Assembly (NCBI GenBank): GCA_036785375.1
Contig: JAWMAR010000076.1
Span: forward strand, 7,998,001 to 8,062,000
DNA: 64,000 bases
Origin: Leucoraja ocellata
Taxonomy: Eukaryota
Reading direction: 5' to 3'
The notes beneath the pieces were generated by a model that had not been told where the DNA came from, did no database searches, and saw nothing but the letters and a program-made list of their open reading frames with translations. How positions within the stretch are numbered: the stretch's first letter is position 1; every line of letters starts with the position of its first letter. Position numbers and translations under genes: made by a program. Positions 14,353 to 41,700 of the stretch are shown in pieces.

Positions 14353-14703
14353 GTCTAAAGGCAAACACATTCCTGATCCAATCCCCAGGTGCTCTGGTGG
14401 TGCGTGAAGGTGAAACAGTGGAGATACGGTGTGTCCTGAACAGCACCAATGTGAATTACATTGTGGACAAATACGACGTTCACTGGTTCAACTCACGTAA
14501 TGGAGAAATCAAACTTAGTCTTTATGTTAATGGCCACACTTACAGGTCACTGGGCTTCTCCGAGCGATTTCAGCTTTCCAGGGACGTCACCAGTAACAGC
14601 TACTCACTGACCATCAGAGAGGTGAAGATTGCCGACTCTGCTGATTACATCTGTGGCATTTGGAACATTATATTAGGAGATGGAACCAAGCTGAATGTAA
14701 CCA
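14353..14703 (+). CDS. Exon V1: N-terminal Ig V-set domain with fused J-like segment
   Basis: cccacag|[61 protein letters not shown]; donor A|gtgagt; 351 nt, phase 1-1. Confidence 0.93.
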
Positions 14704-17700
14704 GTGAGTATTTAAATTGGTTCTAATTCCAATCCTAACATCACGAGGAATCATGATGTCATGTTGTCAGTTTTACAGAGACAAACATCATTAAAAGTTC
14801 ACTCTGCAAAATGGAGAATGAAAATAGGTCAAAATTATTTTTAACTGAATAATGCAGATCACTCGTTACTACGTTCTGAGATCAGGATGGAGAATGTAAT
14901 TTGGCATTGCCAGAGAGGTACACATAGTGTGAACAGATGAATGTAAAGAAATTACAGTATAGGTAGGCTAGTTTCTTCATTTATAATCACTTTGCTTGAG
15001 TTTACTTTATTGTCACGTCTACCGAGGTACAGTGAAAAGCTTTTGTTGCCTGCTAACCAGTCAGCGGAAAGACAATACATGATTACAATCGAGCCATTCA
15101 CAGTTTATGCACGGGCACTATTAGTTGGGGCACCGTCCTGTATGGTATGGCTGCCCAGCCTGCAGCTGTCCGTTTTTTAATCTTTTTTTTTATTTTTAGT
15201 TAGTTAAAGTGTTTTTGTCCTGGAGTTCTAGTCTTTTTTATATGAGGGGTGGGGGGGGAATGGGGAAACTATCTTTCAGGGTCCCTACCTGGTCGGAGAG
15301 GAAGCTTTTCTCCGGGCTGCACCGTTGACCCGTCCTCGCGGCCTACCAGCGGGCCTGGAGCGGCGTTTCCTGAGGGGACCGCCCAGAATCTCAGCTTCGG
15401 CAGCGGCACAGCGCTGGAGCACTATCGCAGAGCGGGTGATGCCTTGCCCGGGTCGCCGCGCTGGAGATCCGGTAAGCTGAGGTCCGCCGATGGAGCGGCC
15501 GGAAGCGCTGAACTTTTCATCGGGAGCCTGGGATCTCTCACCGAGATCGGCAGTTGTGGAACTCCATCCGGCGCGTCCTTGTTGGTTTTGGAAGACGCGG
15601 TCTCGAGTAAGGAGGCGGCCGCTCCAGGTGTCCCATGCCGCTGAGAAGATTCTCCTGACGCCAGAGCACCATTACCCAGCGAGAACGGCCTGGAACATCG
15701 GGCCTCCGTAGCGGCAACTGCGGAGGCCTCAATAGGCCCAACTATGGGCGGACATGTGGATGGGACTGGACTTAGTATCTTCCCTCATAATCAAAACCAT
15801 TGTGGAGGGATGTTTTTTATGTTAAATTTCTTTATTATTGTCATGTTTGTATTCTTTTTTTATGTGCTGCATTGGCAAGAAGCATTTCACTACACCTCGG
15901 TGTACGTGACTAATAAAGAAACATTTGAACCTAGTTGCACCGTCTGCCACACTGAGATCAATTACTCAATGGTCAGCATGGGCTCAGTGAGTGAAGGACC
16001 TGTTTCCATGCTGCATCTCTACACTAAAGTAAACTAAGCATTACCACCTCAATGATCTAGCTGTACTATTTCCATACCCTCTTATTCCTCCAATATACAG
16101 AGATCTGCTTATCTCTGTAGCAGCAAAGGACTAAATAAACGACTAAACAAAGCTAAATGAAAAATGAAATCCCCATTGTGAGGCAACACCTCCCAACACT
16201 GGAGGGAGAGAGAGAGAAAGAGAATGAGAGAGTGAAAGATAATCGTGAACAGGGAGAAAGTTGCAATCAGCTGCAATCATGATTTTAATATCAGTTGCTA
16301 ACCAAGTTAGCATTACTTTTACATGAGGTTATCTAATGACAAAGGATGAATGTATTTTAAGTTGAAACACATGAAGTATTTAGCAACTCCAACATTATTG
16401 TTCATCTGTTGATATTTTCCCTTTCAAGTTGCAAATCCTCCGATCCTGATCCAATCCCCGAGGCTGGAGCGTGTCACTGAGGGTCACACGGCACGGTTAT
16501 GGTGCTCCATGGAGAACGCTGAACTGGGAAACACTGACGTCCACTGGTACCGAGAACTACCCGGGCAGGACATGGAGTGGGTTTTAACACACGAGGCAGG
16601 AGGCAGCGTACGAAGGAGACCAGGCTTCACTGAGCGGTTCCAGCCGTCCAAAGACGCCTCCAACAGCAGCTTCATCCTGAATGTCACAAACGTGATGCTC
16701 AATGACTCTGCCGTCTATTACTGCACAGTGTGGGGAGATATCAGAGGGAATGGAACCCAGCTCAACGTAACCAGTGAGTACAAATTATATTTGGTTTTAT
16801 TAACCTATGTGTAACTATATTGGGTGTAATTCACTTCCCTTGAATTGGCGCATGTACCGGGAGTACTGAAAGATTAAGGAGATCGTACTGGAGCCCTGAT
16901 TCTGGAGACCAATATATTGTGGCCCCTCACTAATGGTGTGAGCACTAATATGGTAACTGATGTCAGATCTGGGTTGTGGGAAATAAATTTCAATGTGCAG
17001 TGTGTTCTTCATTGTAGAGAAAACTAGAAATAGTGTTCAGTGCTCAGTGTAATAGCATGGCACTGCTCACAGCTGTTTGAGTTAAGGTACAGGAGAGCAG
17101 AACAACAACTTGTCATGGCTTTAGATTAACCAATGCTGCCTCCATATTCCAATGGTTAAATAGTTTTTTATTTGTCACATATGCAACTATGCAGTGAAAT
17201 TATTTTTGCATATATTACACATGCTGGTGGTGCCATGTTTTGGCGTCATGATCATTCAAAGTGCAACGTCCGGTCAGCCCACAGCTCGATGTACTGGAGT
17301 AGTTCCCATGAACCAAAGTCCCTCTCCTCTCCTCGCCCGGCCATCGTTGTGTCCCGGGGGTGCTTCCAGCAGACTATCTGGAGGCACTGGAGACAGTTCC
17401 CTGGTTCAACCTCGCACCGGCCCTTGCTCCTTGTGTCTGACGTCTCCAGCTCTCTCCCGGTCATGCCGACCGATGAGCCTTTTGACGGGTTCCCAGTCCC
17501 ACCGACCGGCAAAACTTCGGGCTTGTTTTCAACCAGGAATCACTGATACTTGAACCCCTCACAGAGCAGAGGCAACAACAACAACAACAACAACAACGCT
17601 GTCACTGGATCCAAGGCCAGGCCTCTGGAACTCACTGAGAAGAAACACGTTACACGTTGATCACCTGGGTTCATGCCCACCCTCAGGCTAACACTTTTTC

Positions 17701-38700: not shown

Positions 38701-41700
38701 CAGCTTCATCCTGAATGTCACAAACGTGATGCTCAATGACTCTGCCGTCTATTACTGCACAGTGTGGGGAGATATCAGAGGGAACGGAACCAAGATGATT
38801 GTCACTAGTAAGTTCAGTTTACACAATACTAAACGATCTCCGTTAGTGAAAATATAGAGCAGTTTTGCGCGTTTTTGGATAGCAGTTTTGCACGTTCATT
38901 TTTATTTCAGTTTACAATATTTAAAATGTTAAAAACATTAAAAGTGTTGAATCTTTTAGTTTTCATAGTCATACAGCGTGAAAACAGGCCCTTCGGCCCA
39001 ACTTGCCCATACCGATTCATTTTCATGTATATATTTATGCAGGGTCAGATTTAGATGAAGAGAGGCCCTAAGCTATTTCACTTGTGAGACCCCCCCATTC
39101 CCTGGTCCAGATGTAAGTAGGAGAAGGTGTCCGAGAGTTGGCGCATGGCCTCAGCTTTGTAGAGATCAACGCGCCAGACTACCATGGCACCTCCATTGTT
39201 GGCGGGTTTGATAACCCAGTCTGGGTTGTTGCGGAGTGAGTCGATGGCAGTACGTTTGGGGGGGAGAGATTGGAGTGAGACAGGGGAGTGGAGAAGTTGA
39301 GGTGGTTGATGCCCCGCCTACAGTTTTGGATAAAAAGGTCTAAAGCCGGAAGATGGCCATGAGGGGGGTCCACGAGGAGGGGGTTGGTTGGAGACGGGAA
39401 AAGGGATCATCAATAGGGGGCGAGGACTCCTTCCCATGGAAGAATGCTGTGGGGTGGAGGCGACGGTATAAGAGCTCCAAGTCGTGGTGGGCGCGGAACT
39501 CATTGAGGTGGGGACGGAGGGGGACAAAGTTAATGCCTCTGCTGAGGACTGACCATTCGGTGTCAGAGAGCGGGAGGTCAGGGGGGATGGTGAACACACG
39601 GCAGGGATGGAGGTTGGGGCCGGAGGAAGGCAGGTGAGTGAACTGAGGCCGAGGCGATATTTGATGGGGGGGGGGGGTCGCAGAGTATCCTCTAGTATCT
39701 TTGCCAGCCACTGAGGTTACCAGTGTTGGGGAGACTGGCACTAGGACCCAGTGCAGTCAAACCCAGGGGCGTGGGACTAGTGCAGCTGGGATATTGTTGG
39801 CCGATGTGGGCTAGTTGGGCTGAAGGGCCTGTTTCCACACTAATCACTCTATGACTCAATGACAATTACCTGTTTTTTTCATCTCTGGCCTTTATCCAAC
39901 CATCTTCCTGTCAAAACCCCTCACCTGTTTTACCTATTACCTGCCATGCTTTGTCCTGCCCTTCCTCTCTTCTAGCTTTCTATCCTCCCCTCCCCCCACA
40001 CACACAATCAGTCTGAAGAAAGATCCTGACCCAAAATGTCACCTATCCATATTCTCCAGAGATTAAGCCTGTTCCCATGCTACACTGTTCTATGTTTTAT
40101 TACAGACATTCACTTTGTTCCACCCCCTGCCCTCCCCCAGGTTCCTGGCTACTTAGACCAACCTGGCCTCTCAGACCAACTCGCTTGCTCAGTTCTGATG
40201 AAGGATTTTCAACTTGCAGAGTAGATTGTATCTCTCCCCACAGATGCAGCCTGATCTGCTGAGTGTGTTCACAATTTTCTATTTTTATCCCAATCTGGGT
40301 AGCTTTGGAGAATGCTATGATGGGGCATCTATGATGGGGCATCAAGCAAGCCTGTGTGTTTGCTTAAAATGAGAGAAATAAACACATGTTGCAACTAAAC
40401 TCTATAAACCTTTGATATTTTTCAGATCAAACATATGAAAAGTTGTCTTCGAAAATCTTGGGCGGTATTGTAGCCTGTGTCCTGGTATTCATCCTCTTAT
40501 TCATCATCTTAGCAATAGCAGTGTGCTATATGAAGAAATGGGTGTGCTTCCAACACATGTTTAAATCCGAAGGGTGAGTAAAATGTATTTCCACATCTTG
40601 CTTTAATATGATATTGAATTAAGCATGGTGGGCACGGGCGTTGAATCCAGCAAAGACCGGAGGAAAGAGTCGTAGAACATGGAAGTTTCATGGGATGGAA
40701 CAGTTCAGGCACGGGTGTAAAGGTGGGTTTGCTGCCTTACAGCGCCAGAGGCCCGGGTTCGATTCTGACTATGGGTGCTATATGTTCAGAGTTTGTCTGT
40801 TCTTCCCGTGACCTGCATGGGTTTGCTTGTTTCCTCATACATTCCAAAGAAGTACAAGTTTGCAGGCTAATTGTAGGTAAAATGGTAAATTGTCCTAGTG
40901 TGTAGGATAGTGTTATTGTGCGGGAATCGCTGGTCGGCGCAGACTCGGTGGGCCGCAGGTCCTGTTTCCACACTGTATCTTAAACTAAATTAAACTAAAA
41001 TTTCAGTTATGTGGAGGGACTGGAGAGGCTGGGTCCCAATGCCAGCACATCCTTCCTCAGATATAGACTGATCATAATACGCCAAACTGCTCATAATACG
41101 CCAAACACGGTCTGAGCAGTGCCTTATAAAGCCTCAGCATTACAACCTATTTTGTATTATAGCCCTCAAAGTAAATGTGAGCTTTGCATTCACCTTCCTT
41201 ACTACCGATTCGACTTGCAAATTAATCTTTTGAGAATCCTGCACCAGCACTCCCAAGTCCCTTTGCACCTCTGATTTCTGAATTATCTCCCCATTTAGAA
41301 AATAAGACAATTTTATGTGATTATTGAACATCCCACCACATTGCAGACCTTTCTTTAGACTTTAGAGATATAGTGTGGAAATAGGCCCTTCAGCCCACCA
41401 AGCCCAGTGATCACAAACACTATCCTACTCACTGGGGCCAATTTACAATTTTTACCGAAGCCAATTAATCTGCAAACCTGTACATCTTTGGCGTGTGGGA
41501 GGAAATTGGAGCACCGGAGAAAACCCACGCAGGTCACGGGGAGAATGTACAAACTTCGTAGAGACAGCAGCCGTAGTTAGGATTGAATTTGTGTCTCTTG
41601 CACTGTAATGCTGCAATTCTACCGCTGCGCCATTGTGTTTATTTATTTATTTATGTATTTATTTGTTTTATTTTTTAATTCATATTTTTATTAGAAGCAG

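Follow-up and report, generated by a model that had tools for sequence, protein, structure and literature searches.

The stretch of DNA analysed here (hereafter the window) comprises 64,000 nucleotides of Leucoraja ocellata (GenBank assembly GCA_036785375.1, contig JAWMAR010000076.1, positions 7,998,001 to 8,062,000 of the forward strand; positions are counted from its first letter) and contains six immunoglobulin (Ig) V exons, each ending in a J-like motif. We regard these exons, with very high confidence, as parts of one gene for a transmembrane receptor, the leader exon of which lies on the same contig (C76 below) upstream of the window. The receptor belongs to a family occurring in sharks, rays and a chimaera, and its V domains were probably recycled from a germline-joined VJ exon of sigma-2 light chains; the doubt that tempers this wording lies in the origin of the domains and not in the one-gene structure. 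The coding exons are as follows.

G000:C76:7989164, + strand: leader exon, 8.8 kb upstream of the window
14353..14703, + strand: V exon A, LGDGTKLNV; membrane-distal VJ domain, opening with the last residues of the split leader
16429..16773, + strand: V exon B1, RGNGTQLNV; VJ domain
18574..18921, + strand: V exon C1, YGAGSQLNV; VJ domain with an N-glycan sequon at IMGT position 103
28391..28735, + strand: V exon B2, RGNGTQLNV; tandem duplicate of B1
31740..32087, + strand: V exon C2, YGAGSQLNV; tandem duplicate of C1
38463..38807, + strand: V exon B3, RGNGTKMIV; membrane-proximal VJ domain
40426..40573, + strand: transmembrane exon; hydrophobic stretch without a charged residue
42345..42388, + strand: cytoplasmic exon 1; membrane-proximal tyrosine, PVYSTV
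44747..44790, + strand: cytoplasmic exon 2
46227..46343, + strand: last coding exon; immunoreceptor tyrosine-based inhibitory motif (ITIM) ILYADI at 46242-46259, immunoreceptor tyrosine-based switch motif (ITSM) TEYAAI at 46314-46331, and the stop codon

Exons and structure of the receptor gene

A six-frame motif scan across the window found precisely six V exons with the J-like motifs, all on the plus strand. All six scored above the Pfam V-set cut-off, separated Cys104 from the J position by six residues, were free of stops, and were bounded by AG and GT with phase 1 on either side. The six-residue complementarity-determining region (CDR) 3, the J-like motif and the phase-1 donor after it, which a preliminary description of this DNA had reported, are thus found in every exon.

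We scanned the window for recombination signal sequences (RSS; 12/23 spacer, three mismatches or fewer) with 20 shuffles as the baseline. Two matches were found against 0.6 +/- 0.9 in the shuffles, both intronic and adjoining a CAA repeat approximately 790 bp 3' of a B exon, and no RSS with a 12/23 spacer was found at any of the six V exons. In the same genome, the scan detected 14 of the 15 rearranging Ig or T-cell receptor (TCR) loci and none of the six germline-joined Ig light-chain (IgL) loci used as controls. When the criteria were relaxed and the search confined to 500 bp around the six exons, three weak matches appeared (four mismatches, off-spacer). Thus, exons A to B3 are non-rearranging single-exon VJ domains, and the lack of an RSS near them that the preliminary description had noted was reproduced. 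Its account of germline-fused J segments holds for the VJ exons themselves; that the six belong to one transmembrane receptor with an ITIM and an ITSM had been missed.

Several lines of evidence bear on the one-gene structure. A leader search on the plus strand, covering 50 kb upstream, found a single matching leader exon, and the transmembrane and tail exons were located through homologous proteins. The exon phases of the upstream leader exon and the ten exons in the window sum to one frame of approximately 827 residues, with the layout of a leader, six V domains (A-B-C-B-C-B), an uncharged transmembrane segment and a tail with the two tyrosine motifs. No C exon was seen within the window. 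The assignment of TEYAAI as an ITSM follows the general consensus of that motif. That of ILYADI as an ITIM follows the consensus defined in PMC2442602. The tail is predicted to be inhibitory from these motifs.

Splice joints were sought in contigs from four public runs that we guess to be RNA, the contigs carrying neither expression level nor tissue. The B1-to-C1 joint (16773->18574, with a GT..AG intron) occurred in two runs of one study, and a B-to-B joint (16773->16430) in one run from another study. A further public contig covers exon A (14350-14703) and then continues with different letters at both sides.

In self-comparison of the window, the B-C unit was duplicated together with its introns at 94-97% identity (B1 and B2 are 94% identical in DNA over 1.7 kb, intron included). 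Contig C5, apparently the other haplotype, carries the identical order of A-B-C-B-C-B, transmembrane segment and tail, which makes it improbable that the six-V array arose through misassembly.

Family range, gene cluster and domain types

Among 100 database matches, 98 were family proteins with 1-9 such V domains, and the other two were type I/sigma-2 light chains. The 98 proteins, stored under unrelated automatic names, were from 21 named shark and ray species, one entry being without a species. Domain maps of 100 family proteins contained V domains only; two nevertheless bear a precomputed C1-set tag. A profile search against 1.84 billion representatives found more distant members, and all five of the distinct divergent ones that were looked up were of Callorhinchus. 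Thus, the family occurs in sharks, rays and a chimaera. No bony-vertebrate member was seen among the best 150 profile matches, a list that is crowded by the summed scores of multi-domain proteins and of which ten rows were named. In three Callorhinchus members (P0219, P0242 and P0255), the J position is occupied by Cys and Cys104 has another Cys adjoining it (CC...CG.G), which suggests an extra disulfide across the short CDR3.

The tails of 100 family proteins ended in an ITIM/ITSM pair in 41 cases, and 20 ended in YxxL-x6-8-YxxL, which by its consensus we take to be an ITAM (immunoreceptor tyrosine-based activation motif). Both types are present in the cluster on contig C76, in which five genes start with an A-type domain, two with ITIM/ITSM tails and three with ITAM-type tails (the ITAM exons were read for two of them). 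This contig thus shows the hallmark of paired activating and inhibitory receptors, neighbouring genes whose ectodomains are alike but whose tails are opposed. Approximately 430 kb away, beyond a PTK2B-like exon, there is a family gene with two V domains (L036/L077, G000:C76:8539472 onward), the second of which continues into a 1988-codon open frame (an Asn/Ser/Gly-rich stalk) followed by a transmembrane segment; it matches P0060.

A CHRNA2-like exon lies approximately 20 kb before the first A exon of the cluster and the PTK2B-like exon further along, as sampled in 20 stretches of 10 kb, between which other genes may lie. In the human genome, CHRNA2 and PTK2B adjoin on 8p21. These flanks are unlike the markers of the major histocompatibility complex (MHC) or the antigen-receptor complex described in PMC12227049. 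Both leaders that were read have, approximately 130 bp upstream, a site that we take to be PU.1/ETS-like, a hint of expression in myeloid or B cells.

We compared non-synonymous and synonymous differences per site (pN and pS) among eight closely related A exons from both haplotypes, excluding the two divergent copies of the ten. In the three CDR-equivalent loops of A, pN was 0.22 and pS 0.06, with 34 amino-acid and one silent variants over the eight copies, and pN<=pS in 0 of 5000 codon bootstraps (P<0.001; the pairwise counts are non-independent and the loop bounds approximate). In the A frameworks, pN was 0.046 and pS 0.039. The B (16 copies) and C (five copies) domains had ratios of 0.6 and an invariant CDR3. 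As the A loops are diversified and the B and C ratios are below 1, the data fit a role of A as the ligand-binding tip and of B and C as the stalk.

The preliminary description had stated that the J Phe/Trp was replaced by Leu, Arg or Tyr and that loss of the interface aromatic suggested unpaired domains. The residues were read correctly, but Tyr remains an aromatic residue, and Leu in exon A is a private change, since Phe occupies this position in nine of the ten A copies in this genome, including an apparent allele of the window gene. Among relatives, 45 of 59 A domains have Phe (F/Y118 in 56 of 59), and 50 of 56 C domains have Tyr, which is also found in 16 of 46 sigma-2 chains. The loss stands for B domains, which have Ser in 89 of 153 and Arg in skates, with F/Y118 in just 22 of 153; it does not stand for A, which keeps Phe, or for C, which has Tyr.

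On the other hand, further positions of the face are changed. The positions at which we take a light chain to pair with VH, the heavy-chain V domain, namely Gln44, Tyr103 and Phe/Tyr118, are kept in sigma-2 (Q/H44 in 45/46, Y103 in 46/46, F/Y118 in 46/46), and the A, B and C types depart from this combination. The A domains have S/P44 (43/43) and I103 (38/43). The B domains keep Y103 (148/152), with an N-glycan sequon in the bulge at position 120 in 100/152, and the C domains keep Q44 (53/54), with a sequon at 103 in 26/54. The pairing face is thus altered in all three domain types, by different means. Because of these changes and the glycan sequons on the pairing face, unpaired V domains are plausible. 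The six-residue CDR3 is also present in 3 of 46 sigma-2 chains.

Origin of the V domains

The best non-family match in this genome was a germline-joined V (43% identity) that has a C exon of its own at a distance of 1.3 kb and is nearly the same as a protein bearing the name 'type I immunoglobulin light chain'. Type I corresponds to sigma-2 according to a table of PMC5985310. With the family profile, 66 sigma-2 V domains scored 71-123 bits per domain and a coelacanth sigma-2-like V scored 92; none of the remaining non-family domains within the best 150 library matches exceeded 64 bits. The window B domain averaged 46% identity with sigma-2 V, compared with 25-31% for the lambda, kappa, sigma, VH, TCR and non-rearranging classes of V (26% for the last). 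The codon register from the splice acceptor to the first strand is shared by sigma-2 and A exons. The 150 C matches that were scored in this genome included at least three sigma-2 and at least two sigma C exons and no kappa, whereas the little skate is reported to have 89 or more type I clusters (PMC2192082).

Maximum-likelihood trees were inferred from about 100 columns, from framework region 1 to Cys104+3. Apart from sigma-2, the classes (lambda, kappa, sigma, VH, TCR, and NITR-, CD28-, NCR3-, CD8-, PD-1- and SIRP-like) bear labels of our own rather than database names, chosen by gene context, type of RSS and known features. Three VH rows that failed trimming were dropped from the first tree, and one TCR alpha/delta, one TCR gamma and one chimaera family row from the second; the last tree exchanged four rows for four outgroups. 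The family, including the window V domains, and sigma-2 V formed a clade over four taxon sets with supports of 85/85, 99/97 (bootstrap not fully settled), 88/98 and 97/98. In the second of these trees, this clade lay inside an Ig clade supported at 95/86. Both midpoint and outgroup rooting kept the family and sigma-2 together and away from CD28-, NCR3-, CD8- and NITR-like domains. In 954 of 1000 bootstrap trees, the V of the coelacanth joined light chain grouped with the family rather than with the sigma-2 of sharks; its C scored best, narrowly, with sigma-2 C.

In approximately unbiased (AU) tests on 43 of 76 rows, a grouping of the family with all non-rearranging V was rejected (p 0.008), as were the monophyly of Ig V and that of IgL without the family (p 0.011 and p 0.033). 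We take the AU results on placement as a lean and not as proof.

Sigma-2 has been found germline-joined in skate, gar, coelacanth and turtle (PMC2192082, PMC5985310), so a joined donor existed. We propose that the V domains are probably recycled from such a sigma-2 VJ exon and now serve in paired innate receptors of cartilaginous fish. The exon, with phase 1 at both ends, would have lost its link to the C exon, come to lie ahead of exons for a transmembrane segment and tyrosine motifs, and undergone tandem duplication, before the split of chimaeras and elasmobranchs in early cartilaginous fish. The CDR-equivalent loops of the distal A domain would recognise a rapidly changing ligand, either a pathogen surface or a polymorphic self molecule, and the glycosylated, homogenised B and C domains would form an unpaired stalk whose length varies. 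Once the ligand is bound, the ITIM and ITSM would be phosphorylated and SHP-1/2 recruited; the sister genes with an ITAM, whose A domains are nearly identical, would instead recruit kinases of the Syk family, and the two kinds of genes would make up a paired activating/inhibitory system.

Several observations weigh against this reading. The monophyly of sigma-2 without the family was not rejected (p 0.34), so that sister and nested placements are indistinguishable. Nor were a grouping of the family with CD28-like and NCR3-like V (p 0.24), a clade of sigma-2, lambda and kappa without the family (p 0.099), or two wider antigen-receptor groups without the family (p 0.055 and 0.085). The AU tests that did reject were partly driven by sigma V, NITR-like and CD8-like rows, which lie elsewhere than the constraints demand, the Ig super-clade of the 99/97 tree was not recovered in the 97/98 tree, and only about 100 columns bear on the deep forks. 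The trees were built without UrIg, UrIg2, PRARP and the sigma-2 of gar, turtle and chimaera. In the species that could be compared, the family and sigma-2 lie on separate chromosome-sized records, and no junction relic or C-exon relic that would prove joining by RAG was found.

Further searches returned little: one for additional bony-fish sigma-2 returned only its query, a SIRP-like V query found no close SIRP-like V in this genome, and UrIg was not found among the V-set or C matches. No octamer of the light-chain promoter type was found upstream of the leader of the window gene, and only one of eight control IgL loci was positive 5' of its V exon.

The preliminary description had offered two origins, namely a never-split VJ lineage or a recycled germline-joined IgL or TCR V, to be told apart by the placement inside or outside the IgL/TCR clades. 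The trees place the family with sigma-2, which favours the IgL donor over the TCR donor, and AU tests on outside placements were mixed. If the lineage was never split, the receptor and sigma-2 would both stem from a VJ exon that RAG had not invaded, the joined form of sigma-2 would be ancestral, and the split shark sigma-2 would have gained its RSS later; the receptor itself would function in the way proposed above. The joined state of sigma-2 in the four animals above agrees with this scenario, as do the age of the family, equal to the chimaera split, the grouping of the coelacanth V with the family and the three outside placements at p 0.24, 0.085 and 0.055. However, it requires a second RSS gain or a root on the family branch, the rootings keep the family and sigma-2 away from the CD28-, NCR3-, CD8- and NITR-like domains, shark light chains are documented to have undergone RAG-like joining in the germline (PMC2193156), and the flanks are CHRNA2 and PTK2B rather than MHC or antigen-receptor-complex markers. 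With outside placements at AU p 0.008-0.24, we consider this origin unlikely. If it were true, the cluster would display a pre-RAG role of VJ domains, germline-encoded paired recognition with diversifying CDR loops, and the family would be closer in sequence to real antibodies than the candidates named so far.

Equally unlikely in our estimate is descent from an independent old V-set family of NITR, SIRP or CD8-like grade, with the likeness to sigma-2 due to slow evolution, ancestral residues or partial gene conversion. The tail and gene layout resemble those of other paired receptors, the whole-protein features in ESM Atlas lie nearest TIGIT-, MPZL1- and BTLA-like clusters, and the alignment is short with long outgroup branches. 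Nevertheless, the B domain shares 46% with sigma-2 V against 25-31% with every other class, the Atlas neighbours of a single B domain include light-chain V clusters, and the clade with sigma-2 was stable over the four taxon sets. As the family and sigma-2 loci are unlinked, gene conversion is unlikely. When a member with two V domains was folded from an alignment, V sandwiches and a transmembrane helix resulted (pLDDT 64); its Foldseek matches were engineered antibody fragments only and do not discriminate between origins. A single-sequence fold of P0039 reached a pLDDT of only 35.

Finally, an Ig/TCR locus made up of separate orphan V genes or pseudo-V segments, each of which would be joined by splicing to a C exon far away or serve as a template, would explain the strong likeness to antibody V domains but is highly improbable, being contradicted by the V-to-V splice joints, the single leader exon found for six V exons and the in-frame transmembrane and tail exons downstream, with no C exon seen in the window and no RSS at the six exons.

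Comparison with known receptor systems

The joined form of sigma-2 (type I, NS5, sigma-cart) has the closest V domains, 43-48% identical to B domains and in the same clade, and shares the single-exon VJ, the split leader and the phase-1 donor after J. In contrast to sigma-2, in which VJ is spliced to a single C1 exon, the VJ exons of the family join each other and lead to the transmembrane and tail exons; the proteins have 1-9 tandem V domains without a C1 domain, a tail with tyrosine motifs and another locus.

The NITRs of ray-finned fish are likewise clustered, mostly ITIM-bearing receptors with inhibitory and activating members and a J-like motif in a single V exon (PMC2442602), as found here. 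However, the family lacks the six-cysteine I domain, all of its ectodomains being of V type with the canonical Cys pair, and its activating members carry a cytoplasmic ITAM instead of a charged transmembrane residue. In three trees, the NITR-like rows, labelled by their V-I layout, formed a separate clade without the family V. The NILT/CD300-like receptors share the clustering, the V-only ectodomain and the ITIM or cytoplasmic ITAM tails (PMC3022915), but the family alignments contain no extra cysteine pair of the CX3C type, and the family has a true J-like G strand and an Ig-light-chain-like framework.

UrIg and UrIg2 of elasmobranchs also have a non-rearranging single-exon VJ, a split leader and tandem two-exon duplications homogenised within species, yet UrIg combines one VJ with C1 domains in the MHC or antigen-receptor complex (PMC12227049). 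The family consists of VJ domains without C1, with signalling tails, beside CHRNA2/PTK2B. VpreB is a light-chain-related V that no longer rearranges as well, but it has no J, is not a membrane receptor and has been reported only from tetrapods (PMC2193156, PMC9614664). The C-less array differs from SIRP, in which V is followed by C1 domains, and SIRP-like and PD-1-like V rows were far off in the trees. SIRP is V-C1-C1 and PD-1 has one V; the tails of SIRP-alpha and PD-1 also carry an ITIM and then an ITSM. In its manner of working, the family resembles NITR, NILT and other paired receptors, yet it does not qualify as a member of any of them and is neither a light chain nor UrIg.

We found no prior description of this receptor family in the literature searched, which leaves most subscription journals outside its coverage, and searches of the text and supplement of the elephant shark paper gave no match for ITIM or PTK2B (PMC3964593). 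According to a proposal by Lee et al. (2000), an Ig gene rejoined in the germline could turn into a new rearrangement-free receptor, of which they stated that they knew no direct example (PMC2193156). If the sigma-2 recycling proposed here holds, the family would be such an example, kept through the whole history of cartilaginous fish, in which adaptive parts reverted to innate paired receptors with selection acting on the old CDR loops. A single-exon VJ by itself would then be no evidence of a pre-RAG relic. NITRs are reported to be lacking in cartilaginous fish (bioRxiv 10.1101/2021.06.11.448072), and the family is a candidate natural killer/myeloid receptor system for this group.

Other V genes of this genome were recorded alongside. 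L105 (G000:C531:823265-823546, - strand) is a single-exon VJ with an NPPS loop and an FNGNG G strand, adjoining a lambda light-chain cluster and with a second copy 25 kb off; we take it to be PD-1/CD28-family-like. L051 and L114 (G000:C4485) are two neighbouring VJ genes, each a single exon with an FGNG J motif and separated by 10 kb, which grouped together, loosely with sigma V, and are presumably CD8 alpha/beta-like. L039 (G000:C471:1375360-1375674, - strand), an Ig-like V on a TCR alpha/delta contig with a weak 23-type RSS, grouped with VH at 99/92 and may be a TCR-associated Ig-like V. Several IgM VH exons (L007-L011, L013) continue for some additional codons up to an RSS whose spacer has 12 bases, and on this ground they are apparently germline VD-joined clusters.

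The C1-B2 intron of the receptor gene contains a 4.8-kb element (19478-24289, + strand) with reverse transcriptase and tyrosine-recombinase open reading frames (Pfam RVT_1 and Phage_integrase), which we assume to be DIRS-like. As the duplicated C2-B3 intron lacks the element and the exon spacing on contig C5 is approximately 4.9 kb shorter, a polymorphic recent insertion is suggested. A second copy of this element, approximately 77% identical, is located at about 47323-50022 (- strand), just downstream of the receptor stop codon.

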